NCBI GenBank assembly: GCA_963662405.2
Contig: CAXXKT010000001.1
Location: 192,001-256,000, forward strand
DNA from: Syntrophales bacterium
GTDB lineage: Bacteria > Desulfobacterota > Syntrophia > Syntrophales > UBA2210
Length of the DNA stretch: 64,000 bases
Reading direction: 5' to 3'
Shown: positions 36,487 to 56,527 of the stretch, piece by piece
How positions within the stretch are numbered: position 1 is the stretch's first letter
How the letters are laid out: the number at the start of each line of letters is the position of its first letter
Translations under genes and position numbers: made by a program
The notes under the pieces: model-generated
Databases searched by the model: none
The model's input: only the letters and a program-made list of their open reading frames with translations
Told to the model about the DNA's origin: nothing

Positions 36487-36563
36487 ACCCCCGTAGCTCA
36501 GTAGGATAGAGCAACGGATTCCTAATCCGTGTGTCGTGCGTTCGAATCGCACCGGGGGTACCA
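36487..36563 (+). tRNA. tRNA-Arg(CCT)
   Basis: Acceptor stem ACCCCCG/CGGGGGT, anticodon arm ACGGA-TTCCTAA-TCCGT, T arm GTGCG-TTCGAAT-CGCAC, encoded CCA. Confidence 0.97.
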
Positions 36564-41090: not shown

Positions 41091-41165
41091 CAAAACGTCT
41101 AAGCTCACCGTCGACACTGGAGCGCAACGGAATTGCCATCCGTGTGTAGCACCTCGCGGTTTTAT
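41090..41165 (-). other. Degenerate attC site after the R-M genes
   Basis: Minus strand ATAAAAC...GCTACACACGG...CGGTGAGC-TTAGAC-GTTTTGC, starting at the REase stop codon. Confidence 0.6.
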
Positions 41166-41905
41166 CAGCCAAGGCGTGCTGCTTCTGCGGCAATATGCCC
41201 GGCTAAAGCCGTCACAAATGCTTTAAGCCCAGTCATTGATGAAAGTTGAGAAAAATCTCCAGAATCTACTGCGCTACGTTCTGCCGCGATTACAGTGGCC
41301 GTTGTATATAGCTGCTCTTGTACAAGCCGCTGACATAGTAAGTCGTATCGCTTAAGGTACGAGGCTCCCTTAAATTCCTCAAAAACTGGAAAGTGTGGCG
41401 ATGAATCCCGCACAGGACTTCTTGACTTTGCGGTATCTTCAACCATTATTAGCCAACCTACAAACGGGCGAGGTTGTTTCCCAAAAGCTCCCTCACGGTA
41501 AGCCGTCCAAAGATCGTGTGCTGTTCCGATGGCTTCTTCAGTCCGATTGTTAAAATTGTTACCAAAAGAGGGCCCTACTTGGCTTTTTAACTCAATCGCG
41601 GCAATTAGCTCTCCCTTGTACATTACTAGGAGATCCCACAATTTTGTTGGCCGGAAATACCCCGGTAGCGTCAGCATCGCCCGGTTCTGGTGTATCTCAG
41701 CACGAGCTAGCCCATTGGCCTTGATGATGTCGAGCACCAAAGCCAAGAAACCATCCATGTTCTTGCCTGCGGTCACGCCTGCACGTTCCCCCTGGTCGGC
41801 TTTTCCAGATTCAATCTGCTTCTGCTTTGCTGCTTCACGGTTGCCCCAAAATGCCTTTACGGCTTCACGGGATTTTTGTTCGTAATCAGCGAGATCAAGA
41901 GCCAT
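41165..41905 (-). CDS. Type II restriction endonuclease, PaeR7I/XhoI family
   Basis: [25 protein letters not shown] and [22 protein letters not shown] motifs. Confidence 0.9.
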
Positions 41906-43633
41906 TTATTCTCCATTGCCTCCAAGGGTAGATCGTTCTTCGTGACTCAGGCCATAAAGCTTGAACACGGCTCGGTCGCAAGCTTCTATGTCTCGCTTTA
42001 TGGCAGCATCAGCTAACTCTCGGCGCAGCAGCGCAGGCACATCTGCCCAGGGAGGAATGCGAATCCGGCGTAGGTACTGTGCTTGGAAACGCAGGAACCC
42101 CCCTCGCATCTTCGTTGAATAGGTCGCCACGAAAAGGCGAGTGACAGAGGACAACAGCACCGCCTGCAAAGCCCGCAAATCCCACTCATTAGATGTGACG
42201 TGGTATAGGTTATGATGTGGGTACAGTACCCCGCCTTCAAAGACGATATGCGCTTCGCCCTTTATGTCAGGTATCAAAAGCTTCGGCTTTGCGCCCAGCG
42301 CGGGGGTAATGCGATCAATCGTTCGATACCAGTTGACTGGAGCTTTCTTTGCACAGTGGCGTCCCGCAATCACGTCGCGGCGAGCTTCAAGGTATCGTCT
42401 CAGGCGCGGATAGGCGTCGAGGTCAACCAGACCACCCGATTCGGCAAATGGATTGATGACCCCTTGTCCTCGCCACTTAACCTCACCCGACATGATGTCT
42501 TTTGTCGTCACCAGTCGAATTTTCCGATCGGGCTCAACATCAAGTGCGTCGAAGTCCCCGATGAATGCCTCATCTGCGCCGGTGGCGACACCAATGCCGA
42601 CTTTGCATCCGGTCTCTTCGAGTGATGGGAAACACTGCTCCAGACGGCGAATGAGCGTCATCTGATCGTAAGATCCCAGCAGCCAAGGTTCAGAACCATT
42701 CGTGACACAGGCAAGTTCACGCACCCCTCCAGACTCTCCCTGCAATGAAGGAGCACGGAGCAAGTCCGCCAGTGCAGTCAGGGTTGCCCGGTCAATAACT
42801 GGACGATGCGCAATGCGAGTTACACCCGGCACTTCACGGCTGATGATCGTTATAGCAGGGTACGTAATCACGTCAGAATGGAACGCTGGGGTATCCACCA
42901 TATCGACATAGACTCTCAAGTGAAACCGTTCTGCCACCAGACTCCGAAGTGGCCCACCATATCGGTTCTTCATCCACCGATCTGTACAGATAAAACCCAG
43001 ACTTCCCTTATCCGACAAGAAAGAAAGCGAGCGCTCGATGAAGGCGATATAGATGTCTGCCCTGTCAAACATTGTCTGGTAGCGGGTTCGGTACTCTGCA
43101 AGCAAGGGCGCTGAAATAAGCTCCTGACGGACGTAGGGTGGATTGCCCACAACAAAATTAAATTCTCCTTCCAGTGGAGCGAGCAGAAAATCCCCCTGTG
43201 ACAGCCACCCGTCAACAAGAGCCGCTGCAGTTTTGGCCGCTATCCCCTCGCGTTTGAGAAGGGTTACTATCGCCGCATAGGTGCTGCGAAAAGTATCATG
43301 ATGCAACTCGACGGCCTTGATCGCGTTGCTCAGGTCGTCCAAGGCAGTGCCATTCGGCTTTGCAGCCCGCCAGGCGCGCAGCAACCGCTCGATGATCGGA
43401 AGCAGGAAATCACCACCACCAAACGATGGCTCCAAAATCCGCATTTCATGGAGCGGCTGATCTTCCGTGTAACCAACAAGATCGAGAATGAACTCAACTA
43501 CCTCGCGACGGGTAAATATCGCTCCACGTGCGTCAGTTTCTGGATTTAACGCCAACTGATCTATCGCAGCCTGCACTTTTTTTGTGATGTACTCAGGATT
43601 TGGGAAGTCGATTGTAATTTGTGATGATTGCAA
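41906..43633 (-). CDS. N6-adenine DNA methyltransferase (gamma class), partner of the REase
   Basis: [16 protein letters not shown] and VGNPPY motifs; directly abuts the REase. Confidence 0.92.
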
Positions 43634-43671
43634 GAAGCTTCCTCTTTGCGTTGGTGTGATATAATACCGCC

Positions 43672-43890
43672 AACAATGAATATGCCCATTAGGTGTTTCC
43701 CGACCTTTCGTGCAATCCTACTTTATTTCACGAAGAATTAAAACAGAAAAATCTAATGTAAAATCAGTACCAATTGATTTTTTCGATTGGTTATTCTGCG
43801 GCAATAAAGAGTAAAATCCTAAGTTGGTAAAACATAGGAGGAATGGCAATGGCTAATAATAAATACCATTTGAAATGATGTATTGACGGA
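43672..43890 (-). repeat. Platform B left arm, copy 1 (homologous to 57685-57870)
   Basis: First 72 nt align ungapped at 53/72 identity with 57685-57756; homology begins at the AAC (GTT on the minus strand). Confidence 0.85.
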
Positions 43891-44059
43891 TCGAATCAAA
43901 TAAACGACAGTGCAGGAAGAATGGCGCAGCAAAACACGAGTTCTGCCCCTGCTGTACCAAATCTCACACGTTGCACCTTGTCCTCACCATCGAGTGCGCC
44001 GAGAGCTCACCGATTGTTTATTGAAGTCGGCATTCTGGGGGGAAGTTTCTGTGTAGCAG

Positions 44060-44429
44060 ATTTCTTTCGGTAATGCGCAGGAATCATCAAAGAAAAAAGA
44101 AATCGTGCTGTTTATTGGTGTCACTTACTACTGCTCAGAATAATTCCAGAGGAAAATCGATGAGTACTGATTGAAAGACTCACGGTAAAATCTCTTGACA
44201 ATACTTCGTCGGATAGTTAGTTAAGTAAGCGTTTTGATCTTGACGGCTTTACTTTTTTGAACTGCTGTAATAACCAAAGGGGAGATTATGGTCTGATCAT
44301 CAAAGCTCCGTTTCTTAAAAAGAGAGATGGAGCTTTTTTTATGAATGTCTCGATCGAATTTTAGGTGTTATGACGCACTTTCCCCTGTTTTTAAGATATT
44401 ATACGAGATCCATATAAACATTGTTAGAC
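44060..44429 (+). promoter_or_regulatory. Platform A copy 1: promoter, leader with Met-Val mini-ORF, terminator, attI-like core
   Basis: TTGACA at 44195; GGGGAGATT-ATGGTCTGA at 44288-44296; hairpin plus U-tract at 44302-44340; ATAAACATT-GTTAGAC at 44423. Confidence 0.8.
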
Positions 44430-44466
44430 GATACCAGTTATTCAATTCAGAGAAGGAATTTAAATA

Positions 44467-45437
44467 ATGGTCACAGTTTTTTTTCATATTCTCACCGCGA
44501 TGAAGATCTGAGGAATGAATTGGAAATTCATCTTTCAGCTCTTAAACGCCAGGGTGTTATCCAAACTTGGCATGATAGGCGAATTGAAGCCGGCAAAGAC
44601 CTTGACGATGAGATCGATTCAAATATTGAGGGTGCAAATATTATTCTTCTTCTCGTAAGCCCCTATTTTATAGCATCAGATTACTGTTATAATGTTGAAA
44701 TGCAACGCGCGATGGACCGCCATGTTAAAGGTGAAGCCAGAGTGATACCTGTCATCCTTCATCCGTGTGACTGGCAACAGACCCCTTTTGGGAAATTGCG
44801 GGCCACACCGACTGACGGCAAAGCTGTCTCAAAATACCCCAATCAGCATGATGCTTTCCTCTCTATTACCAAAGATATACGCCATGTTGCCGAAGAAATA
44901 ACCGGAGGATCAAAAAACGGAAATAATATTTTGAAACAATCACGGTATGTCAGAACAGAGGATATAGTCCCATCTCAATTTGCTGAAAAGCCAAGATCAA
45001 GCAATCTAAGAGTTCGTAGAGAATTTACCGACATTGAAAGGACAAGATTTCTTTCTGGAGCTTTGGGCTATTTTCAGAAATATTTTGAGAACTCTCTTAT
45101 AGAACTTCAGGCTCGTTCTGTTGGGATCGAAACCGAATTCAGAAAAATAGATGCAAACCACTTCATGGCTATGATTTTCAAGAAGGGTAATCTGGTTAGT
45201 CAATGCAAAATCTGGCTTGCAATGGATTCTTACTCGACAGGAGAGATCCGTTACTCTTCGTCTGTGTCTGTCAATGACAACTCTTGGAATGAATCACTTC
45301 ATGTAGAAGATGATGGCTATGTTTTGGGTCTCAAAAGTAGGGGATTTCATCATATTGGTTCCGATTCAGAAACATTATTGTCTAATGAAGGTGGCGCAGA
45401 ACTTTTTTGGAGTATGCTTTTGAATTCTTTACAATAA
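44467..45437 (+). CDS. TIR-domain protein; natural start is frameshifted at a T8 tract
   Basis: FFSYSHRDE, WHDRRI and SDYCYNVE TIR motifs; the ATG at 44467 (AAGGA RBS) is out of frame by one T; the ORF track uses TTG at 44421. Confidence 0.85.
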
Positions 45438-45454
45438 AATGTAAGGAGAAGGCA

Positions 45455-45601
45455 ATGATTAGACAACGTTTCAGATGCAGAAACTGCGGCCGTAGATTCG
45501 AAACCGAGGTATTTGAACCAGGTGAAGCTAAAGAAAAGGGTTTGCCTTCTGGTCCAGTGAGGTGCCCAGATTGTAGAAGCACTGATGTAGAAAGAATTTA
45601 G
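45455..45601 (+). CDS. Small zinc-ribbon protein (48 aa)
   Basis: CRNC...CPDC motif; AAGGAG RBS; lies inside the TIR cassette. Confidence 0.75.
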   Translation: MIRQRFRCRNCGRRFETEVFEPGEAKEKGLPSGPVRCPDCRSTDVERI

Positions 45602-45641
45602 TCTTTTGTATTTGCCAGATAGGCAATATACTGATCAACAC

Positions 45642-45713
45642 GTCTAACAAGTCGCTGGAGAATCGACGGGAACACGCTGGTGCGTTTCCCGCGTCTCAGC
45701 TCCATCGTTATAC
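45642..45713 (+). other. attC site
   Basis: GTCTAAC...GCTGGAG / CTCAGC...GTTATAC with inner GGGAAC.CGC/GCGTTTCCC stem; GTCTAAC is complementary to GTTAGAC at 44423. Confidence 0.85.
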
Positions 45714-45752
45714 AAAACAGAGGCCACATGCCAAATTCACGAACAGGAAATC

Positions 45753-48194
45753 ATGAAACTTGACGATTGGAAAGCAGAAACAAAGACGCGATTACCCACT
45801 AGCGCGGTTTATAGTGTTCTAAAAGAGAAGTGTAACAGGGACTCAGCTGGGCATCAAGTGTTGGAACTCGTTGATACCGCTACCTACTATGCATATCAAA
45901 GAACCAAAAGTATAATCCGGCATATGGGAGAGTTTACTCTCCATGATGGAGACCATCTATTCCGTGTGCTGTCGCTGCAGGAACGGTTGCTTTCCAATGG
46001 GCAATTGCGTTCGCTCAATGTTCCTGAACTCATGTTAATGATTTTGTCGGCGTTTTTTCATGATATTGGGATGGCGCCTGATGAACAAGACGTAATAGCA
46101 TGGAAAAAGATATGGGATACTACACCTCAATTTGAGAGCGGTACGGAAGAATTGGAGTATCAAAAATTTGAAAGGTTCTATTTCGCGAGGCCTGATGATC
46201 GCGATAGGGTTGAGCAATGCCTTCGCCGCGGAGATCATACTGGGGCAGACTGTGCTAAAGCTCATGTGGTTAGTGATTATATAAGGACGACACATGCGGA
46301 GCGAGCTAGGCAAATCATTAAGAAAGATTGGATGAATAAGATCGTATATCGCGATACTGACCTTACGGTTGAGTTTGCAGGGATTTGCTTCAGCCATAAC
46401 GAAGATCCACTTTCTTTGCTGGATCTTGATCCCGGTTATTTGTGTGGCCCTGATCTTTATGCAAACTTGCAACTTGTGGCCATTCTTTTAAGACTATCAG
46501 ATATTCTGGATTTCGATGCCAAAAGAACACCATCTATCCTTTTTTCTCACTTGTATGTGCGAAATCCAGTTTCCATTAGTGAATGGAACAAACATCGTTC
46601 GGTAGAGGCGTGGAGCATAACACCTGAAATTTTACAATTTCATGCAAAATGCCGTCATCCGGCTATTGAGGCGTCGATAAATGCTTTTTGTGATCTCATA
46701 GATATCGAGTTGGGTGCATGCAATAATATTGTCGCATCAATAAATAAATTCGATCGTCGTTTTTCTTCATCTGCTATTATGCTCCCCCTAAGAGTTGATC
46801 GAACCAAGGTTGAAACGGTGAAAGATATAGAAGGAAAGCCGGTTTACCTATATCGACAGACGCAGTTCAATCTAAGCAAAAAGCAAGTTATAGATTTGTT
46901 GATGGGAACGAAACTCTACGGTAATCCAGAGGTGGCTTTGAGAGAACTGATCCAGAATTCAATTGATGCTTGCCTGTTAAGGCAGGCACTAGAAGCTTCT
47001 TGGAAAACCAATTACACTCCGAGAGTAAATATTAAATATTATTCTATGGATGGGCAAGATATTCTTGAGGTAGAAGACAATGGAACCGGTATGGATCAGC
47101 ACATTATCGATGCATATTATTCAAAAGTAGGGTCTTCCTTCTATAAGTCTTCCGAGTTCTATGAGCTGAAGTCTCAGGCCAGAGCTAGTTTTACGCCAAC
47201 ATCAAGATTTGGAATTGGGATCTTATCATGTTTCATGGTCGCGGATACGCTAATTGTCGATACAAGACGTGTATATGGACCGCATGAATCAAGTAAACCG
47301 TTGAATGTTACTATCGAAGGACAGGAAAGCATTTTCTGGATTAAATCCGGCAGCCTGTCAACTCCGGGCACTACAACTAAATTATTCCTTCGAAAAACAG
47401 GAAATCCCTGGGATAGGATGGATGAAAACGAATTCATTACATCGGTGGAAGGAATTATTTCAAATCCGCCATTTGAAATAAAGATAGAGACATCTTCTCA
47501 TAGCAAGTCCAGGGATGCCTCAAGCTTTCTCCAAGTGCATGCAAATAACTTAGAAAATCGTTCATGGGAGGAACACGATAACGTTCGGAAGATATCTATC
47601 GAATTTGATGATCCCGCAAGAGGCTTTGTCGGTTCCGCTGTTGTTGCCATATTAGAGAGTCATGGCTTCCCAGTGCCTAAGTTAGAAATGACTTCTCAGA
47701 CAGTCGATATTAATGGTGAACCGTACGAACTTGGAAAGAGCATCGCTATTATTGAGAATGAAATAGAAGAGTCAGCAACAACTATTTCAATAGACGAAAA
47801 TGGAGATATTGATCAATCGAATTCATATCGTTCACTGAACAAGTCCATATCTCAGCTATCTCTGCATGGTATTGAGGTGCCTACCACATTATTTCCTGCA
47901 TCGTGGAGGATGCAAAAGAATCAGGTTAAGCTTTCATGGCCATTCCCTATAATATTGGTGGTGGATGTTTGTGGAGACGCTGATCTAGATCTCAATTCGT
48001 CGCGTACGCAGATAATAATGTCGGAAAAATGGGTCGAGTTTGAAAAACGGCTGTCATTTGAAATATGTTCGAAGCTTGCAGACTCTGTGTCTCGGGATTA
48101 CTGGGAAAAACTTAGAAATGTGTTGTTGTCAAATACGAAAAACCCAATCTTTTCTCAGAGTGTAAACGAAGTTGAAAAAAGCTACAACGTATAA
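45753..48194 (+). CDS. HD-domain (HD-CE-like) + HSP90-like HATPase protein, putative defence
   Basis: FTLHDGDH...FFHDIGM; LYGNPEVALRELIQNSIDA, DNGTGMD and SRFGIG motifs. Confidence 0.85.
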   Translation: MKLDDWKAETKTRLPTSAVYSVLKEKCNRDSAGHQVLELVDTATYYAYQRTKSIIRHMGEFTLHDGDHLFRVLSLQERLLSNGQLRSLNVPELMLMILSAFFHDIGMAPDEQDVIAWKKIWDTTPQFESGTEELEYQKFERFYFARPDDRDRVEQCLRRGDHTGADCAKAHVVSDYIRTTHAERARQIIKKDWMNKIVYRDTDLTVEFAGICFSHNEDPLSLLDLDPGYLCGPDLYANLQLVAILLRLSDILDFDAKRTPSILFSHLYVRNPVSISEWNKHRSVEAWSITPEILQFHAKCRHPAIEASINAFCDLIDIELGACNNIVASINKFDRRFSSSAIMLPLRVDRTKVETVKDIEGKPVYLYRQTQFNLSKKQVIDLLMGTKLYGNPEVALRELIQNSIDACLLRQALEASWKTNYTPRVNIKYYSMDGQDILEVEDNGTGMDQHIIDAYYSKVGSSFYKSSEFYELKSQARASFTPTSRFGIGILSCFMVADTLIVDTRRVYGPHESSKPLNVTIEGQESIFWIKSGSLSTPGTTTKLFLRKTGNPWDRMDENEFITSVEGIISNPPFEIKIETSSHSKSRDASSFLQVHANNLENRSWEEHDNVRKISIEFDDPARGFVGSAVVAILESHGFPVPKLEMTSQTVDINGEPYELGKSIAIIENEIEESATTISIDENGDIDQSNSYRSLNKSISQLSLHGIEVPTTLFPASWRMQKNQVKLSWPFPIILVVDVCGDADLDLNSSRTQIIMSEKWVEFEKRLSFEICSKLADSVSRDYWEKLRNVLLSNTKNPIFSQSVNEVEKSYNV

Positions 48195-48250
48195 CAAGGT
48201 TTTTACAGGGATCGCAAAAACCGCGCGTTTGCTGAAAAACAACGTTATGC
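48189..48250 (+). other. attC site
   Basis: GTATAAC (contains the stop codon)...GTTTTTACAG / CTGAAAAAC...GTTATGC; GTATAAC is the exact complement of GTTATAC at 45707. Confidence 0.85.
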
Positions 48251-48275
48251 GTTTTGTGCATAAGGGGAAGTTAAA

Positions 48276-50087
48276 GTGAAGCTCGAACGATTGACATTGA
48301 AGAATTTTCGTGGCTATCGCGACGAAACCCCAATTCAGTTCGATGATCTAACCGCATTCATTGGAAGAAATGACGCAGGGAAGTCCTCGGTATTGGAGGC
48401 TCTTGAGATCTTCTTCAATAGCTCCTTAATCACTTGTGAACGTGAAGATCTTTCCATCGAGGCGCAAGGACACAATATAGAAATTGCATGCATTTTTTCT
48501 GAGGTCCCAGATCAAATCGTAATTGATGCGGCGAGCCCAACAAATCTGGCAGACGAGCACCTTCTTAATGGTGACGGCAATCTGGAGATTAAGAAGATCT
48601 TCCCAGCGACTGCCGCGAAACCGAAGGAAAAGATTTATATCAGTTGTATGCATCCATCGATTGAGGGTGCTGCCGACTTGCTCGAATTAAAACGAACGGA
48701 GTTGCGAGCACGTGCAGCGGAACTTGGTGTTCCAGAGGATAGTTATAATGGCAATGTAAATGCATCAATACGTCAGGCCATACGGCAACATATAGGTCAC
48801 CTCAACCTCACTCCTGTGGAACTACTGGTCGATAAAGAGGACACGAAGAAGGTTTACGACACAATCAAGGACTATCTGCCGATCTATGCGCTGTTTCAAT
48901 CTGATCGGCAAAGTCGTGACGATGACAAGGAAGTTGCAGACCCAATGAAATTGGCTGTTCAACAGGCGTTGCATGATCTCGCACCCGAGTTGGAGCACAT
49001 CAAGACTGAGGTCCGCGCTAGGGCAATAGAAACCGCGAATCGGACACTAATCAAGCTTCGAGAAATGGTGCCAGAGTTGGCTCGTGAGCTGACTCCGGAG
49101 TTCAAAGCGGAACCTAAATTCGATTCTCAGTTCAAGTTGTTGATCAAGTCGGAAGATGACATTGCAGTGAATAAGCGCGGCAGCGGAGTTCGGCGGCTCA
49201 TCTTGCTGAACTTTTTTCGTGCGGAGGCTGAACGCAGGCAGAGTGACGCGGTAGCATCTGATGTTATTTACGCCTTCGAAGAACCTGAAACCTCACAGCA
49301 TCCAGATCATCAAGAAATGTTGATGAGAGCATTTTTGGAGCTGGCTAACGCTCCAGGTAGCCAAATTATCATTACAACTCATACCCCAGCGCTGGCAGGT
49401 TTCCTGCCCCTGGAAAGCCTACGTTTCATTGAGCGTGAGGGGCATAGCCGAACCGTTGAGTCAGGGAACGATGATGTATTTCAGAAGGTCGCAGACACGT
49501 TGGGCATCCTTCCCGACCCAATTCCCAAAAATGCAACGGCCATCCTCCTCGTTGAAGGCAAGAGTGACATTTCATTCGTTCACCATACTGCGGAGCAATT
49601 GAAGGACGGCGGCCATCTGGACGCAACATTTGAAGACCGCAGATTTGCAATCGTACCAATAGGTGGGTGCGGTAATATCAAGCATTGGCGAACCCTTCAA
49701 CTGGCGAATCAATTTGGCGTGCCCTATTGTGTACTCCTTGACTCGGACCTCGGTACTCCCGAAGAGGCTGAGAACAGGCGAAAAGTCGCGGAACTGAAAG
49801 CCGACGGTATCAAAGCGTACCTCACGCGGAAACGCGAGCCAGAAAACTATATTCATCTCGATTGTCTCAATCTTCCAGCAAGCAGCACATTCACCATTAG
49901 TGATACGGACGACGCCAAAGTAAAAATAGGCCATGAGAAAGGGACTCGAAGGGCCACCGTCCTGGAAGATTATTGGGTGTTGATGACCTGCGAGCAAATT
50001 CGGGAGGTTGAAAAGTATGCTGACGGAGACACTGAAAAGTTCGAATTCACAGAGATGTTTCGGGACTTTTTGTCGCTTACCAATTGA
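48276..50087 (+). CDS. OLD-family ATP-dependent nuclease (ABC ATPase + TOPRIM)
   Basis: GRNDAGKS, RGSG, FEEPE..HP and THTP motifs; TOPRIM LVEGKSD and LDSD. Confidence 0.88.
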   Translation: MKLERLTLKNFRGYRDETPIQFDDLTAFIGRNDAGKSSVLEALEIFFNSSLITCEREDLSIEAQGHNIEIACIFSEVPDQIVIDAASPTNLADEHLLNGDGNLEIKKIFPATAAKPKEKIYISCMHPSIEGAADLLELKRTELRARAAELGVPEDSYNGNVNASIRQAIRQHIGHLNLTPVELLVDKEDTKKVYDTIKDYLPIYALFQSDRQSRDDDKEVADPMKLAVQQALHDLAPELEHIKTEVRARAIETANRTLIKLREMVPELARELTPEFKAEPKFDSQFKLLIKSEDDIAVNKRGSGVRRLILLNFFRAEAERRQSDAVASDVIYAFEEPETSQHPDHQEMLMRAFLELANAPGSQIIITTHTPALAGFLPLESLRFIEREGHSRTVESGNDDVFQKVADTLGILPDPIPKNATAILLVEGKSDISFVHHTAEQLKDGGHLDATFEDRRFAIVPIGGCGNIKHWRTLQLANQFGVPYCVLLDSDLGTPEEAENRRKVAELKADGIKAYLTRKREPENYIHLDCLNLPASSTFTISDTDDAKVKIGHEKGTRRATVLEDYWVLMTCEQIREVEKYADGDTEKFEFTEMFRDFLSLTN

Positions 50088-50090
50088 AAC

Positions 50091-50152
50091 ACATAACATC
50101 TTGCAGATAAGGACGTGCAAAACTCCCCGCGCCTCATAGCATTGCGTTAATG
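50091..50152 (+). other. attC site (partly degenerate)
   Basis: ACATAAC just after the stop codon...GTTAATG; 62 bp; ACATAAC is near-complementary to GTTATGC at 48244. Confidence 0.65.
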
Positions 50153-50154
50153 AT

Positions 50155-50363
50155 TACTGAAAGTCTCACGGGGGAAATTTCTTGACATGACGCTACTATA
50201 CAGCTAGTAGTTTAGAAGCTTCATCGGTCTTGACCGCTTTATATAGGTTTTTGAACAGCTGTAACCGGAGGGGATTATGGTCTGATCATCAAAGCCCTGT
50301 TTCTCAAAATGAGAGATAGGGCTTTTTGTTTTGTGTGAACGCCCTAGAATAATACTGTTAACA
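50155..50363 (+). promoter_or_regulatory. Platform A copy 2
   Basis: TTGACA at 50182; GGAGGGGATT-ATGGTCTGA at 50277-50285; AAAGCCCTGTTTCTC/GAGAGATAGGGCTTTTT terminator; AATAATACT-GTTAACA at 50357. Confidence 0.8.
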
Positions 50364-50381
50364 GTAGAAAACGGGTGACAT

Positions 50382-52703
50382 ATGAACCCTACTTTTATTG
50401 ATATTCACATTCATACATCGGAGAATCCAGACAAACTCAACCCAAACTATGACGTTAACTCATTGTATGAAAATGTGACCAAGGTCGCGCATGAAGCAGA
50501 TACACTAATATCATTGTCAGATCATAATGTTATAAATGAAAATGCCTACCTAAAAGCCTTACATAAATTCCCCAATATGCTTATCGGATGTGAGTTGCAC
50601 ATTCGAAACTATCAGAATAAACCTCCCTATCATTGCCATATTCTTTTCGGTACTCCAACGATAGATCACGAAACTATTTCGAAGATCAATGAATCCCTGC
50701 TAAAATTATATCCGAAGAAGGTTGTTAAAAATGCAGATACAAACATTCCAGAAATACAAGACATCATAAAAGAATTTGAGGAATACGACTTTCTGGTTCT
50801 TCCTCATGGTGGACAGTCCCACTCAACTTTTGACATATCCATTCCTGATGGCGTTATATTCGACAGCAGTCTTGAAAGAAGTATTTATTACAACACCTTT
50901 GACGGATTCACTGCAAGAAGCAACAAAGGTCTAGAAAAAACAATTGAATATTTCAAGCGCCTCGGAATTAACGATTTTGTCAATCTCATTACTTGCACGG
51001 ACAACTACAATCCCCAAAAATATCCTAGTCCAAAAACAGATGAATATGAAGAATATATCCCTACTTGGATGAACTCATTGCCAACATTTGAAGGCCTAAG
51101 ACTTGCTCTATCAGAATCATCTCGGCTTTCGTACCAAAGTGACCCCCCCGGTAGATGGTCGGAATACATCAAATCGGTGCACTTGTCGAATCCCAGAATA
51201 GAAATCGACGTCAATTTGAGTGAGGGCTTAAATGTGGTTATTGGTGGTTCATCAAGTGGAAAGACTCTTTTTGTAGATTCCTTGTATTGCAAGATCGTTA
51301 ACAATTATGAGGAGAATGTTTATGTCAAGTCGCAATATCCTGTCAAGGATATAGACGTCAACAATCCTTCAGGATTGACTCCACATTATATCAACCAAAA
51401 CTATATTACTAAAATTGTCGATACCAAGAACAATGAGACGAGAATTGATGATATTGAGATAATAAAAACCCTATTTCCAGACGATAACGAGGCAAAACTC
51501 AACATCCAACGGTCATTGCATGACTTCAGAGAGTGTTTCAAGGAACTCCTAAGTAGTGTGAAAGCAATAGAGGAGATTCAGAGTTCCCTGAAAAGGATAC
51601 CCTTCCTTTCGCAGTTGATATTGTTGGCAAAAGTAAAAGATAACGTGATTGAGAAACTTCTGCCATCTCCAGAGCAAATACAATTAATTCATATTTCCAA
51701 AGCTTTGCACCACTCATATTCTGAACATCTTGAACAAATAGATAACTTTTTGACAAATAATCCGGTCATTGACCACGATCCATCTTTGGTTATGAGGTTA
51801 AAAGATGAATTGGATCTAGCGTTTTCCTTCTCTCATTCTGAGGAACTTGTCAGAGCCATAATCGAGAAAAAGAAAGCCGACCAGAAAGCTTGGCTTCTCC
51901 AGTTGAACAAAGAAGGACAGCAAAAAAAAGATTCCTTTAACGATCTGACACGATTTTTTACCAATTACAACATCGCAGTCAAGAAATTCAATAACTGCTT
52001 AATAAGGCTTGGTAAATTCGATACAAAGGCGCAATCAAACACAATTAAAGCAATGGGACATATATTGTATATCGAAAACCAATTTTGCATAAATAGCAGT
52101 ACGTTTATCGATATTCTGAACCAATTTCTAAAAAAGGAAAATCAGATTGAATCGATGGACACTTTACACCCAGAGTCGCTATTCTTCGCCAATTTCAAGC
52201 AAAAGCCTAAGATCAGCGATTATGATGATTTGGAGTCTAAGGTGTACGCTAAATTCGAAGGCCTTAATAAGAAATCATTCAAAATCACTACTAGCGACGG
52301 AAGGGATTTTGATAACCTAAGTGCTGGTTGGAAAACATCTGTAATATTGGACTTACTCTTAGGCTATGAAGAGGATTTTGCTCCCATAATAATCGATCAA
52401 CCCGAGGACAATCTTGCGAATCCTTATATAAACAGGGGGCTGATCAAAGCTATCAAGGATATCAAACCAAAGAAACAAATAATTCTAGTGTCGCATAATG
52501 CCACGATACCAATGTTGGGTGATGCTCAGACTGTTGTTGTTTGCAAAAACGAAGAAAATAGGATTGAAATAAGATCCGCCAAACTTGAGGGTAACATAAA
52601 CTCAAAAAAGGTTGTCGATCATATTGCCGAGTTGACAGATGGCGGCAAGGTATCGATCAAAAAGAGGGTCAAGAAATACAACCTTAGAAAGTTCAGGGAA
52701 TGA
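50382..52703 (+). CDS. PHP phosphoesterase-ABC ATPase fusion (Ppl/TrlF-like), putative defence
   Basis: DIHIHT, SDHN, GCE and TD PHP motifs; GGSSSGKT, LSAG, IIDQPEDNL and SHNA ATPase motifs. Confidence 0.85.
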   Translation: MNPTFIDIHIHTSENPDKLNPNYDVNSLYENVTKVAHEADTLISLSDHNVINENAYLKALHKFPNMLIGCELHIRNYQNKPPYHCHILFGTPTIDHETISKINESLLKLYPKKVVKNADTNIPEIQDIIKEFEEYDFLVLPHGGQSHSTFDISIPDGVIFDSSLERSIYYNTFDGFTARSNKGLEKTIEYFKRLGINDFVNLITCTDNYNPQKYPSPKTDEYEEYIPTWMNSLPTFEGLRLALSESSRLSYQSDPPGRWSEYIKSVHLSNPRIEIDVNLSEGLNVVIGGSSSGKTLFVDSLYCKIVNNYEENVYVKSQYPVKDIDVNNPSGLTPHYINQNYITKIVDTKNNETRIDDIEIIKTLFPDDNEAKLNIQRSLHDFRECFKELLSSVKAIEEIQSSLKRIPFLSQLILLAKVKDNVIEKLLPSPEQIQLIHISKALHHSYSEHLEQIDNFLTNNPVIDHDPSLVMRLKDELDLAFSFSHSEELVRAIIEKKKADQKAWLLQLNKEGQQKKDSFNDLTRFFTNYNIAVKKFNNCLIRLGKFDTKAQSNTIKAMGHILYIENQFCINSSTFIDILNQFLKKENQIESMDTLHPESLFFANFKQKPKISDYDDLESKVYAKFEGLNKKSFKITTSDGRDFDNLSAGWKTSVILDLLLGYEEDFAPIIIDQPEDNLANPYINRGLIKAIKDIKPKKQIILVSHNATIPMLGDAQTVVVCKNEENRIEIRSAKLEGNINSKKVVDHIAELTDGGKVSIKKRVKKYNLRKFRE

Positions 52704-52936
52704 GCATGAAAATGCATTTTTCAAGAAGCGATACTGGCGAAACTGTGGTGCAACTTATCGAAAATGGGGATGCGTTACCTTTCAATTACATTACACTTGT
52801 GAAGCATCTGATCGTTAATGCGAATCTGGAAGAGACAACATTTGATGAAGAGTTTTCCTCTGAAGAACAGGCTGCTGTGAATTCAATGGCTGAACGTCTT
52901 GTAGAGGCATGTAAAAAAGAACCGAAGGCCAGCTGA
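52700..52936 (+). CDS. Small acidic hypothetical protein coupled to the PHP-ATPase
   Basis: ATGA overlap with the upstream stop codon. Confidence 0.65.
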   Translation: MSMKMHFSRSDTGETVVQLIENGDALPFNYITLVKHLIVNANLEETTFDEEFSSEEQAAVNSMAERLVEACKKEPKAS

Positions 52937-53063
52937 GTTGCAGGGTACCTGTTTATTACCAGAATTATACAATAACTCGATCCCGATTAGTTTTCTAGAC
53001 TTCAGGAAAAATTTAATAAACCATGGACTTAGGCTGTTCTATTATGATCTGCTCGGGCAATTC

Positions 53064-53129
53064 CTAGACGTACGCGATCTTTAACTTCTGGCCGACGTAG
53101 ATCCGATTCCGGAACCTTATCTTGTTAAC
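53064..53129 (-). pseudogene. C-terminal LysM-domain remnant
   Basis: VNKIRFRNRIYVGQKLKIAYV* resembles the end of a LysM domain; the upstream sequence is unrelated. Confidence 0.5.
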
Positions 53130-53148
53130 TTGAATCAGAAATATTGAA

Positions 53149-53469
53149 ATGCCAACTTTTTTAGAAATGAAGATTGATAACGATATTGAAAATATTCTTA
53201 AAGATACCATTAGAGATATCTTTGAATGTAAGGACGAAGAAAAAAGACTGGCCATTGATGTATTCTTTGAGTTGGCAAAAGATTGTTCGATCCCATCAAA
53301 TGTTTTGGATAAAATTCTTTATTATTTTATAAATTTTCATGGACCTAATAAAGCTGGGAATAGAGTAGCAGCTAATATTTTTAAACAGAAGTTTGATGAG
53401 TCATATAACAGCTCGGATTTTAGCCAACTTCTAGCAATGATGAAGCATGATCAGGATAAAGGATCATAA
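53149..53469 (+). CDS. Hypothetical protein
   Basis: ORF track, AT-rich, no recognisable motif. Confidence 0.5.
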   Translation: MPTFLEMKIDNDIENILKDTIRDIFECKDEEKRLAIDVFFELAKDCSIPSNVLDKILYYFINFHGPNKAGNRVAANIFKQKFDESYNSSDFSQLLAMMKHDQDKGS

Positions 53470-53607
53470 AGAGGACAAATAAGATAGGGGCAGAGGCTTT
53501 TTGACTGAACATTGCTAATTACTAAAAAGAAATCTACAAATTGTGGTGATTACTTGTATTTGTAGTCAATAAATGTGGGAAATGGATTCACGGCTTGGCT
53601 TTCAATC

Positions 53608-53954
53608 CGTACTGTTCAGGCAGGATAAAGGAAAATGCCAGAGTGTCGGTTATTGACGCCACCTACTACTGCTCAGAATAATTCAATTAGAAAATCAACA
53701 ATTACTAATTGAACGTCTGATGGTAAAATCTCTTGACAATACATTATCATAGAGTTAGCTAGAAAATGATTTTGGTCTTGATTGTTTCTGCTTGTGAGCA
53801 GCTGTAGCCAAGGGGGATTATGGTATGATCATTAAAGCCCTGTTTCTCAACGCGAGAGATGGGGATTTTGTTTTTTGTGGACAGGTTATGTTGATATCGA
53901 TGTTGCCGGATGAAGAATGGGTTTTTATCAGGATCCAGATAAACATTGTTGAAC
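53608..53954 (+). promoter_or_regulatory. Platform A copy 3
   Basis: TTGACA at 53733; AGGGGGATT-ATGGTATGA at 53820-53828; hairpin plus U-tract at 53834-53876; GATCCAGATAAACATT-GTTGAAC at 53948. Confidence 0.8.
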
Positions 53955-53970
53955 TCATAAGGAAAATTGA

Positions 53971-54999
53971 GTGGAAGATTTACATCAAGAGTTTTTGAAA
54001 ACACTCAATGAGGTGATTGAGAAAAATCCAGAAAAAGCAGATGAGATTGATATTGAGCAACTCATAGCAGATGTAACCCCAGAAGCCGTTCGCTTAATAA
54101 AAAGCTCTCTTCTAAAATCCGCGAAAAAGATGCTTAAGGAGAGGCGAAAGTTAGCTAAAGGCTTCGAAAAGCGGAACATAAAACGCTGGTCTAAAGCATT
54201 CGATTTATTAGAGTCTCACATTGTTATATGTACAGAGGCAGGAGAAGAATTCAACTCATCGTATAGACCAACTGCTGCTGAGGAAAACAATTTAGTATTT
54301 GATATTGTTGTCAGACATCATGCAAGAGCCTGTCATATTGCACAGGAAATTCTATGTCTCTTAAAGGCAGGTTTTGCTGATGCTGCTCATGCCAGATGGC
54401 GTGCTCTCCATGAAGTAACCGCGACAGGAATGTTCATAGCTAGACATGGTCATGATTGTGCAGAGAGATTCTATTTTCATGACATTGTTGATTCTTACGA
54501 CGGAATGCTTGAGCACAAAAAGTACGAAGATCGGCTCCAGGAAAAGGCACCCTCCCAAGAAGAGCTCGATAGCTGCAAAGTAGAATATGACGAACTGATT
54601 GCACGATACGGTAAGAAATTTGCAGATCATTATGGTTGGGCTTCATACTTGTTCCCAAAACATAGGCGAGTAGGTTTTACAGCAATAGAAAAGAATGTTG
54701 GCTTGGATCATATGCGCCCCTACTATAGGTGGGCTAGCCAGAATATACATTCGGGCTCTAAAGGAATGAGAAACCGTCTCGGACTGTGTGAGGCAAAAGA
54801 CGATATTCTACTGGTTGGGCAAAGTAATTCAGGAATGACAGATCCTGCTCATGCAACAGCTATTAGTTTAAACCAAATTACTTGTGCTCTTTTGATGCTT
54901 GAGCCTACGTTAGATCATATTGTGATCATGAAAATAGCTGATGAATTTCAAAATGATGTGGGGGAAGCATTCCTAGAGATAGAGCGAAATGATTCATAA
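53971..54999 (+). CDS. DUF5677-like protein
   Basis: EILCLLKAGFADAAHARWRALHE and YYRWASQNIH patterns. Confidence 0.7.
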   Translation: MEDLHQEFLKTLNEVIEKNPEKADEIDIEQLIADVTPEAVRLIKSSLLKSAKKMLKERRKLAKGFEKRNIKRWSKAFDLLESHIVICTEAGEEFNSSYRPTAAEENNLVFDIVVRHHARACHIAQEILCLLKAGFADAAHARWRALHEVTATGMFIARHGHDCAERFYFHDIVDSYDGMLEHKKYEDRLQEKAPSQEELDSCKVEYDELIARYGKKFADHYGWASYLFPKHRRVGFTAIEKNVGLDHMRPYYRWASQNIHSGSKGMRNRLGLCEAKDDILLVGQSNSGMTDPAHATAISLNQITCALLMLEPTLDHIVIMKIADEFQNDVGEAFLEIERNDS

Positions 55000-55061
55000 C
55001 AAATCAATTAAGCGGAAAATCAGGCCTGCGGCCTATTTTCCGCTTATCTCAGTCGTTAATA
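54994..55061 (+). other. attC site
   Basis: TCATAAC (contains the stop codon); TAAGCGGAAAAT.AGGC/GCCTATTTTCCGCTTA stem; GTTAATA. Confidence 0.85.
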
Positions 55062-55175
55062 ATTTTTGAAAGAAATCCTTGCAATTGTTTCAATATTTAT
55101 TTTATCGGTTACAGGAAGAATCGCGCAGCAAAAGTATTTCTCGGACACTCCTGCGGCGATTTTCCCACTCTTCAC

Positions 55176-55233
55176 CTACTAACAAATGATTTCGATCAAA
55201 GGGGAATACTGAGGATTACCGTTGGAAGTGTAG
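55176..55233 (+). repeat. Platform B right arm, copy 2
   Basis: 52/58 identical to 41033-41090. Confidence 0.9.
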
Positions 55234-55292
55234 TAGAATACCAGTTTCACTGGCACCAACTGTTTGGCGTCCAGTGCAAAAAGATGTTAGCA
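55233..55292 (-). other. Degenerate attC of the DUF3800 cassette
   Basis: Minus strand TGCTAAC-ATCTT-TTTGCACTGGACGCC...GGTGCCAGTGAAA...ATTCTAC (the R' G appears mutated). Confidence 0.65.
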
Positions 55293-55300
55293 TTTCATCC

Positions 55301-56527
55301 TAGTACCATGTAACATAATATGTTTCGTATTTATAAAAGGTATGATAGACTGGCGGCAAACCAACAGAGGAGGTTGCCATGTCGCCAAGATATCGAGTAA
55401 CCCTTACCAAAGAAGAACGCAAAGAGCTTGAGGCAATGACCCATAGAGGAAAGACCCATGCCCGAAAATTCATCCATGCCCGCGCATTACTTTTGTGCGA
55501 TGCCGGCTCTGACGGTCCGGCATGGAACGTGTCCGATGTTGCAGAGGCGCTTGGGGTGTCGAGCCGTTCGATCGAACATCTCAAAAAGCGCTTTGTTGAA
55601 GAGGGGCTTGAAGCAGCTCTCGAACGCAAGGCACGGGAAAAGCCTCCGAGAGACATCATTTTTGACGGTGCATTTGAGGCACGATTAGTCGCATTGGCCT
55701 GTTCAGACACTCCCGAAGGACATCGTCGCTGGACGGTCAGATTGCTTGCCGACAAAGCTGTCGAGCTTGGCATTGCCGATTCCGTATCACACATGACCGT
55801 ACAGCGGATTTTAAAAAAAACGAACTTAAGCCTCACATCAGCAAATACTGGAAAATCCCTCCCGAAGGGAGCGCGGCCTTTGTAGCATGCATGGAAGATG
55901 TTTTGGAGATATATCATCTGCCCTATGATCCCGACTATCCGGTTGTCTGCATGGATGAATCCTGCAAGCAACTGATAGGTGAAGTTCGAGAGCCGATGCC
56001 ATGCGCACCGGGAAGGCCGATGCGAACAGACGACGAGTATGTCAGAAACGGGGTAGTGGAAATATTTATGGAAGTTGAGCCCCTTGCTGGCAGAAGACAT
56101 GTGGCGATCACGGAACATCGAACAAGAAAGGATTGGGCGATGCAGACCAGGCAGATGCTTGATGAACGCTATCCCAGCGCCCTCAAGGTTCGTCTGGTCA
56201 TGGACAACCTGAACACCCATACAATCGCCTCACTCTACGAAACATTCAAACCCGGGGAAGCCAGGCGTTTAGCGGAACGACTCGATATCCATTATACGCC
56301 TAAACACGGAAGCTGGCTGAATATGGCAGAGATCGAGCTCAGCGCCCTGAAAGGACAATGCCTTAATCGCCGGATTCCCGACATAACGACCATGCGAACC
56401 GAAGTGGCCGCATGGGAAAAAGATCGAAACAACAGCGCGAAAAACATTGTATGGCAATTTACTACTCCTGATGCTCGCATTAAGTTGAAGCGCCTTTATC
56501 CGAAGCTATAAACGTTACATGGTACTA
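55301..56527 (+). mobile_element. IS630-family insertion sequence
   Basis: Perfect terminal inverted repeats GTACCATGTAAC/GTTACATGGTAC flanked by TA on both sides. Confidence 0.95.
55379..56511 (+). CDS. IS630 transposase, two ORFs joined by a -1 frameshift at A8 (55813-55820)
   Basis: HTH ORF (RWTVRLLA) then DDE ORF (CMDE, MDNLNTH, GSWLNMAE); the shift restores LKKNELKPH. Confidence 0.92.

Follow-up and report, generated by a model that had tools for sequence, protein, structure and literature searches.

A dispersed leader module with an intrinsic terminator, and its possible role as a portable attenuator, in a Syntrophales bacterium

The window analyzed here is a stretch of 64,000 nucleotides from a Syntrophales bacterium (GenBank assembly GCA_963662405.2, contig CAXXKT010000001.1, positions 192,001 to 256,000 of the forward strand), and it carries three copies of a leader-like repeat between positions 44129 and 53876. 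These three repeats are members of a dispersed module of about 230 bp that is found across the family, and not the product of a local triplication. Each copy combines a conserved upstream region, a promoter-like site, a hairpin (P1) that holds a Shine-Dalgarno (SD)-like run and an AUG, and an intrinsic terminator. Tentatively, we read the module as a portable cis-acting leader with a terminator-based attenuator, placed ahead of unrelated, mostly accessory genes. The parts of the three copies are arranged as follows.

44129..44194, + strand: copy 1, upstream conserved region (TACTGCTCAG...GAAAATCGAT..TTGAAAGACTCAC..), its left edge after CACTTAC at 44122-44128
44195..44223, + strand: copy 1, promoter-like site (TTGACA at 44195-44200, 17 nt, then TAGTTA with its TA at 44218)
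44230..44342, + strand: copy 1, predicted leader RNA, its putative start some 35 nt past the leading T of TTGACA
44233-44244, 44255-44275 and 44279-44284, + strand: 5' part of the copy 1 leader, namely tail box, P1 5' strand (box1) and G-rich loop
44288-44296 and 44302-44336, + strand: 3' part of the copy 1 leader, namely AUG-GUC-UGA and the terminator, the latter followed by a U-tract
50150..50210, + strand: copy 2, promoter-like site (TTGACA at 50182-50187, TAGTAG at 50205-50210) preceded by a shortened upstream region
50217..50333, + strand: copy 2, predicted leader RNA, with P1 in the centroid structure
50252-50288, + strand: copy 2, P1, with box1 at 50251-50266, loop GGAGG and AUG-GUC-UGA at 50277-50285
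50291-50325, + strand: copy 2, terminator plus U-tract
53667..53761, + strand: copy 3, upstream conserved region and promoter-like site, after CACCTAC at 53660-53666
53733-53738 and 53756-53761, + strand: copy 3, hexamers TTGACA and TAGCTA (TA at 53756)
53768..53876, + strand: copy 3, predicted leader RNA, with box1 at 53793-53809 and AUG-GUA-UGA at 53820-53828
53833-53870, + strand: copy 3, terminator, weaker than the other two because of a G.A mismatch at the base of its stem

In terms of copy number, the sequence-only reading that preceded this analysis was correct about the three repeats, and all of the motifs that it listed, including G(A/G)TCTTGA and GA(A/G)C(A/T)GCTGTA, are present in each; its description of the leader as triplicated, however, covers only 3 of about 50 copies in the genome. 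A 23-nt core pattern has 3 matches in the window against 0.01 expected. In the whole genome (3.80 Mb on three contigs, GC 52.3%-53.8%), blastn with copy 1 gives 34 matches, an nhmmer search of the contigs with a profile built from the three window copies gives 53 hits, 43 of them near full length, and a covariance model, R1, built from 35 copies of this genome (alignment A2), gives 51. Copies in the window's genome are referred to below as own copies. Several of the blastn matches are 80-87% identical over 57-100 nt (for example, C1:396291-396375, 87% over 85 nt), and those that cover the whole 166-nt query are 72-79% identical. The conserved region reaches about 70 nt 5' of the -35 hexamer in copies 1 and 3. 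A search for "empty" modules lacking the core between two GTGAACAGCT boxes found none, only three copies that are truncated or carry another terminator.

Beyond the genome of the window, R1 finds the element in 30 of the 38 genomes of the family and in 9 of its 10 genera, with no match in genus g4 (0 of 6 genomes). By blastn the element is seen in 18 of 24 family genomes; outside the family, the same method returned one weak case only, within one of 16 other families of the order. The exact 33-34-nt core is present in public records of metagenome-assembled genomes (MAGs) titled Syntrophaceae, Syntrophales or "Deltaproteobacteria", as well as in two oddly labelled bins, a MAG titled Candidatus Theseobacter exili and an "uncultured archaeon", and two contigs of a viral collection (IMG/VR) each carry a full copy. 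These last occurrences could be due to wrong binning or to mobile DNA that carries the core; no Pfam family was matched by the genes next to the viral-contig copy, and blastn of a plasmid collection gave no match. The module matches no family of Rfam 15: a scan of the whole window at gathering thresholds returned only a tRNA, and an E-value scan of 43600-54100 gave as its best overlapping match Yfr10, at 25.8 bits (gathering threshold 43; E = 2.5). No description of the module was found in the literature covered, which does not include subscription-only papers.

The module is oriented with respect to the genes behind it. The downstream gene is co-oriented in 37 and opposite in 6 of the 43 near-full own copies, at a median gap of 103 nt, whereas only 25 of the 43 share the orientation of the gene upstream. 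For copies from other genomes (104, of which 11 were excluded for too little downstream DNA), the downstream gene is co-oriented in 83 cases and opposite in 10 (83/93); all of these orientation counts rest on a crude greedy caller of open reading frames (ORFs). In several own copies the gene starts 14-52 nt past the U-tract, and at three orthologous loci it starts about 35 nt past it. Such short gaps between U-tract and gene leave little room for a separate promoter. The junctions between leader and gene are kept across species. The co-orientation in both sets supports the earlier proposal that a promoter, a short RNA and an intrinsic terminator stand 5' of genes.

The genes themselves are diverse. 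Downstream of own copies lie genes for ThsB-like TIR, OLD/AriA-like ATPase, Mrr, HNH, GGDEF and HD-GYP proteins, followed in the inventory by a Ser/Thr kinase, HU-like and Lcl_C proteins, an MscS channel and many products without a Pfam match. In relatives we find Shedu, AIPR, SIR2, KAP NTPase and DNA methylases together with genes for ATP-citrate lyase, amidohydrolases, Usp and an MFS transporter. With defense, cyclic di-GMP (c-di-GMP), metabolic and surface genes and attI sites all represented, the view of the element as specific to defense genes does not hold. Low-GC neighborhoods (<50%) surround 23 of the 43 near-full copies, compared with 17% of genome windows.

The hairpin at the 3' end of the module is a canonical intrinsic terminator, with a GC-rich stem, a U-tract and a conserved structure. 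Folding energies of the hairpin are -20.5, -23.5 and -16.6 kcal/mol in copies 1, 2 and 3 (z = -6.7, -7.2 and -3.6, respectively), and no other terminator-like site on the + strand of 43600-55400 ranks above any of these three. On A3, an alignment of 100 distinct copies from other genomes, 96.8% of 1488 cells are paired (slid controls, 38-71%), 7 of 15 pairs show double changes, and the 22 double-change cells compare with 5.1 in shuffles (0/500). RNAalifold, run on 35 own and 101 related copies, predicts the terminator alone. Of the stem changes that had been called compensatory, only one is a double change (C-G to U-A) between copies 1 and 2, and the other turns a wobble into a Watson-Crick pair. 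The distance from the stop codon to the stem is 5-7 nt in 133 of 137 copies.

Several terminator pairs are kept as G.U or alternate between G.U and Watson-Crick, and because G.U pairs are conserved, we conclude that the hairpin is selected in the RNA of the + strand. Conserved G.U pairs are found in both hairpins of the module, and the palindromic operator that had been offered as an alternative is therefore unlikely. We also observed, at C1:433000-442100, five terminator-only relatives of the module hairpin (AAAAGCCCCGTTACTCGAACCCGAGCGATGGGGCTTTT) within 9 kb, which carry neither promoter nor P1.

At the 5' end, motifs were counted in 140 unique copies, 5 more having been dropped because the motif could not be anchored. 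TTGACA is exact in 130 of the 140, and the following frequencies refer to these 130: a C precedes the hexamer in 99%, an AATAT box lies upstream (80-94%), G occupies -14 in 85%, and T and A at -12/-11 (+23/+24), after a spacer fixed at 17 nt, are present in 98% and 95%. That the spacing between -35 and -10 is fixed speaks for a genuine promoter. Some 45 nt ahead of TTGACA, own copies carry AGGAGAAAATCG-ATG-ATT-ACT-GAT-TGA, which has the appearance of a second SD and mini-ORF. This look-alike is not conserved, as relatives carry ATT in place of ATG, and it advises caution in inferring mini-ORFs from few copies.

Between these two ends, the single-sequence fold of copy 2 reveals the hairpin P1, in which UGA-A-CAGCUGUAACC pairs with GG-A-UU-AUGG-U-CUG-A-UCA. 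In this architecture the G-rich, SD-like run occupies a 5-7-nt loop, and AUG, GUC and UGA lie in the 3' strand. The 14 pairs of P1 are 89.6% paired on A3, versus 21-49% when slid, and the 18 double-change cells compare with 9.7 in shuffles (1/500). By paired cells, the counts are 360 of 392 in 28 own copies and 1255 of 1386 in 99 relatives. A set of 86 further unique copies from metagenome contigs was picked solely by the canonical terminator; in 79 such copies, 1038 of 1106 cells are paired, versus 24-47% when slid.

The SD-like run and the AUG within P1 are highly conserved. A G/A run occupies -9 to -5 before the AUG with 5-nt spacing, and the run and its spacing would make a strong initiation site; the 3' end of the 16S rRNA of this organism carries CCUCC, and SD motifs stand upstream of 35% of its ORFs versus 12% at a control position. 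The sequence-only reading is supported in its G-rich run and its AUG, in an organism that uses SD pairing. In the 140 unique copies, ATG is present in 134, TGA as third codon in 108 and TAA in 5, and 110 hold a strict two-codon ORF. With each codon counted by itself, the metagenome set of 86 gives 82 (ATG), 80 (TGA) and 0 (TAA). The sequence GAUUAUGG is 96-100% conserved, versus 80-95% for its pairing partners, and the two G.U pairs that involve the U and the G of the AUG are hardly ever converted to Watson-Crick by a change on the AUG side, though such a change would strengthen the helix. Because this conservation exceeds what pairing needs, the AUG and its context are under an extra constraint, which could stem equally from a start codon or from a sequence-specific contact.

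The mini-ORF as a coding unit fares less well. Its only change among the three window copies is synonymous, as had been noted, but the middle codon takes 14 forms in 140 copies (GTC, GCC, GTT, ATC and GAC among them). The reading of these codons as coding is weakened further because no position of the motif varies more than the second base of this codon, and by the stop-codon bases, which at 89-92% are conserved no better than the TCATC that follows. The evidence that had been taken for translation is better explained by the RNA hairpin. In P1, the variable second base is a bulge, and a change from GUC to GUU retains a G.U pair. Where the stop codon is lost by a change of UGA to CGN, the partner strand has changed from A to G in 7 of 9 cases and in 3 of 3 metagenome cases (10 of 12), a partner G that is rare overall (36/127 and 9/79 copies). 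These compensated losses suggest that the stop codon is probably kept for pairing. The idea that GATC sites in the motif relate to Dam was dropped, the second GATC being GATT in 36 of 140 copies.

Our tentative model of a cis-acting attenuator can be put in the following terms. Transcription would proceed from the promoter of the module itself, starting about 35 nt after TTGACA, and most transcripts would end at the U-tract as a short RNA of about 115 nt. The downstream genes would be expressed only through read-through, and acquired genes would so be held at a low or conditional level. As the input, a ribosome is the most likely candidate, albeit a doubtful one when taken by itself; the remaining probability of the model falls to another factor that binds P1. 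A ribosome on the loop SD would open P1 at the AUG and, at 5-7 nt from the terminator foot, or through freed GCUUU/AAAGC flanks, would alter the efficiency of termination. The effect could go in either direction, as an opened P1 could release the flanks and favor termination. In its most ambitious form, the model describes an RNA device that senses translation initiation, with an SD in the hairpin loop and the AUG of a two-codon ORF in the stem, set against a terminator, and spread by mobile DNA before about 50 unrelated accessory operons per genome; we consider this form unlikely.

Several observations weigh against the attenuator. We infer the transcript start, the efficiency of termination and read-through alike from the nucleotide sequence. 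The -10 element is atypical and weak, with a T at -7 in only 5 of the 130 TTGACA copies, and a sigma-70 consensus scan does not call the module sites; of the TTGACA-N17-TAG promoter first described, the -35 hexamer and the TA stand where they were placed, and the -10 remains weak. The measures of P1 that count pairs or pair types are non-significant (15/500 and 48/500), and its covariation tests are inflated by related copies. P1 is moderately stable (mean -8.8 kcal/mol, z about -1), and its pairing probability exceeds 0.5 in 34 of 91 copies. Of the 140 copies, 27 have lost the stop codon, as have two of three orthologous amidohydrolase leaders that keep SD, AUG and terminator, so a strict two-codon ORF is not required. 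The candidate antiterminator, a five-pair extension of P1 at the terminator foot (GCUUU:AAAGC), is 77% paired and shows no covariation (187/500 shuffles as good), which leaves it unsupported, and pairing of the loop GGGG with the terminator CCCU was rejected for having 0 double changes. Given the footprint of a ribosome, one standing at the UGA would mask only the lowest 3-4 terminator pairs.

Other partners were considered for P1 and for the module. The 5' tail pairing UGAUC:GAUCA is 81% paired, with 13 double-change cells versus 7.7 (10/500), and is a possible alternative partner. CsrA, whether titrated by the module in the manner of CsrA/Rsm RNAs or bound to it as a leader, was rejected as a protein partner because its distribution (14 of 38 genomes) does not follow the element: in genus g10, CsrA is found in 2 of 14 genomes and the element in 12 of 14, and in genus g4, CsrA is found in 3 of 6 and the element in 0 of 6, many of these genomes being incomplete. 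A NusG paralogue was rejected likewise, its distribution across the family not following the element. The genome of the window encodes a second NusG-like protein of about 173 aa (C1:1449233-1449526) and, on the third replicon, a CsrA homologue (C3:280413-280571).

Around the three copies, the window contains genes and recombination-like sites in the following order.

44408..44429, + strand: attI-like site after copy 1 (..CCATATAAACATTGTTAGAC), by motif likeness
44421..45437, + strand: ThsB-like TIR protein, the gene that comes first behind copy 1 (limits of the listed ORF; its real start probably lies more inward)
45455-45601: 48-aa zinc-ribbon-like ORF with two CxxC pairs, after the ThsB-like gene
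45641..45713, + strand: attC-like site (GTCTAAC...GTTATAC) closing the first cassette; bottom-strand fold -17.2 kcal/mol, z = -3.6
45753-48194, + strand: HD-CE/HATPase protein
48276-50087, + strand: OLD/AriA-like ATPase-TOPRIM protein
50382..53469, + strand: after copy 2, 773-aa ABC-type ATPase with a Ppl-like C-terminus (its ATG 50 nt past the U-tract), then 78-aa and 106-aa ORFs
53936..53955, + strand: attI-like site after copy 3 (CCAGATAAACATTGTTGAAC)
53971..54999, + strand: DUF5677 protein, the gene after copy 3

Just upstream of copy 1 lie an XhoI-type restriction enzyme and its methyltransferase (41165-43633, - strand), and a tRNA gene (36487-36560) is found upstream of these restriction genes.

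The attI-like motif (..ATAAACATTGTTRRR) lies about 60 nt behind copies 1 and 3 and behind four other own copies (6 of 53 hits), and the ThsB-like gene and the 48-aa ORF look like one integron cassette. The earlier statement that each terminator lies between the promoter and cassette genes is correct for copies 1 and 3. Copy 2 has no attI, and an attC site upstream of it is unsupported. The genome has an intact intI (C1:2211990-2212934) and a broken one (C1:30608-31553). No intI is present in the window, and no module copy lies beside either integrase. Since the intact integrase is encoded elsewhere with no module nearby, the module is not part of a canonical integron.

Mobile DNA adjoins the module in other ways. 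On the upstream side, unrelated sequences abut the module at a common CACCTAC junction; some of these are common to two or three copies, and one ends ..GTTATTGACGCCACCTAC in several genera. Several mobile elements appear to have used this junction as an insertion hot spot. On the downstream side, GGGTCTTGACTAGAACAGC.. begins directly past the U-tract at two places (C3 about 212040 and C1 about 441980), one of which adjoins an IS1595-type transposase gene, and an insertion sequence (IS) may target the module terminator. No transposase regularly adjacent to the module and no terminal inverted repeats were seen. Behind the leader, various copies and genera carry alternative conserved "second modules", as at 50334-50360 of the window. 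One of these starts GTGAACAGCTTAGATTAATAT, which repeats the in-RNA box GTGAACAGCTGTAACC, and continues with the inverted repeat GTATTATAC..GTATAATAC. By fuzzy matching, the 21-nt box is present in 45 of 137 copies.

The positional evidence that suggests an attenuator, namely co-orientation with the downstream gene, fits equally a mobile promoter joined to a fixed and leaky terminator, which would hold expression low without regulating it and would release an inert short RNA as by-product. P1 and the AUG context would then contribute to RNA stability or terminator efficiency and not to sensing. The lack of a supported antiterminator, and of a function common to the downstream genes that would suggest one signal, points in this direction, and a precedent exists in greA, for which the sections of PMC2836576 drawn on here report that two-thirds of transcripts stop in the leader whatever the growth phase. 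What such constant damping leaves unexplained is the conservation of GAUUAUGG (96-100%, above its pairing partners) and the retention across 9 genera of P1, of its G-rich loop and of a distance of 5-7 nt to the terminator, and we hold this explanation to be a serious but doubtful one.

The module could also be a family of stand-alone small RNAs, in which the terminated transcript of about 115 nt acts in trans, on mRNAs, on a protein or as a decoy initiation site, and its location before genes is incidental. The module has its own promoter and its own terminator, two hairpins, a 5' tail with a conserved UUGAUCUUGA box and strong sequence conservation across genera, all of which would suit a small RNA. 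However, the module follows the orientation of the downstream gene (37/43 and 83/93) but not that of the upstream gene (25/43), an RNA acting in trans would be unusual in having about 50 near-identical paralogues, and the most conserved single-stranded part is SD-like and not anti-SD-like; moreover, no site in the genome outside the copies is complementary to the 25-nt core with up to 5 mismatches, a search that is weak for short seeds. Such a role therefore seems quite improbable. Still less probable in our estimation is selection at the level of DNA, whereby the repeat would be a landing pad, a recombination site or a selfish miniature element and its promoter and RNA features incidental. 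The unrelated sequence ends at the CACCTAC junction, the attI-like sites behind 6 copies, the IS-like end past the U-tract at two places, the enrichment in low-GC surroundings (23/43 versus 17%) and the copies on two viral-collection contigs are consistent with this notion. It is opposed by the G.U pairs conserved in both hairpins, which indicate selection on the + strand RNA, by the lack of terminal inverted repeats or an associated transposase, and by an intact integron integrase with no copy nearby, and targeting by mobile elements is compatible with a cis-acting leader in any case, as repeated sequences are often targeted.

The leader-peptide attenuators of trp and his and the stop-codon stalling of tnaC rely on a short ORF with a strong ribosome-binding site before a termination signal. 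The module is reminiscent of these in having a short ORF with an SD just upstream of a terminator in a 5' leader. It differs in that it has no regulatory codons (one variable sense codon), no supported 2:3 antiterminator and a stop that is not specially conserved, and in that the same leader serves about 50 unrelated operons. Two-codon minigenes are known as well, as in lambda bar, and with an SD, an AUG, one sense codon and a stop in 110 of 140 copies, the module would by its sequence resemble such minigenes. In the axe-txe minigene mg2, as described in the parts of PMC8708949 consulted, translation of a two-codon ORF acts in cis on the downstream gene, through translation or mRNA stability of the adjacent cistron. 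Unlike the minigene described there, the mini-ORF of the module is enclosed in a hairpin directly next to an intrinsic terminator, and 50-250 nt separate it from the gene. With respect to the integron platform (Pc, attI and cassettes) or clusters of attC sites lacking integrases (CALIN), copies 1 and 3 are similar in that the promoter points into an attI-like site and an attC-closed cassette, but a terminator separates the module promoter from attI, no integrase is adjacent and most copies have no attI. The greA leader of Escherichia coli (GraL) has, in the sections of PMC2836576 referred to above, a strong promoter, a leader terminator and both short terminated RNAs and full mRNA; in contrast to the module, which is a repeat family with an SD-AUG hairpin, GraL as portrayed there is a single locus with neither feature.

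Of the systems described, two kinds of dispersed sequence come closest. Mobile attenuators are, in the portion of Naville and Gautheret (2010; PMC2965389) considered here, closely related terminator-bearing sequences directly upstream of unrelated genes in one species or a few related ones, which were found to originate from 3' or 5' terminators of insertion sequences and prophages and which lack a promoter. The module is like those described in that portion in its 43 near-full copies, its co-oriented downstream gene (37/43) and the diverse Pfam content behind it, and unlike them in that it brings a promoter, an SD-AUG hairpin and a conserved upstream region and has no transposase association that we could find. 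A check for an origin from an insertion sequence or prophage found no transposase regularly adjacent, and mobile-element ends abut some copies on both sides. Putative mobile promoters (Matus-Garcia, Nijveen and van Passel, 2012), to the extent that they are covered in the part of the commentary used (PMC3575422), are highly similar upstream regions of non-homologous genes that occur both inside one genome and across genera, mostly lack an Rfam match and were surveyed in windows from -150 to -50, mostly as sequence pairs. The module reaches the standard for such promoters, an identity of 80% or more across 50 nt or more ahead of non-paralogous genes, and it is distinguished from those of that survey by its number, about 50 copies in each genome, and by having a terminator and an RNA architecture that is defined. 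The module unites a mobile attenuator with a mobile promoter and adds an SD-AUG hairpin to them.

For annotation, repeats of about 230 bp of this kind flag the 5' ends of transcription units and the insertion hot spots of mobile elements. If the attenuator is real, the module would represent a structured RNA family not yet described, which offers hundreds of natural variants for study, and a case of integron cassette arrays that stand behind a terminator in place of an open Pc promoter. In the ambitious form of the model, which we consider unlikely, such arrays would be gated by transcription attenuation, and a regulon that takes in defense genes, c-di-GMP enzymes and integrase-less attI platforms would be set by a mobile leader and not by a transcription factor. 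In this one family, known here from records of Syntrophaceae and Syntrophales, newly acquired genes would be given a ready-made promoter with a built-in brake, which would amount to a general answer to the safe expression of horizontally acquired, potentially toxic genes.

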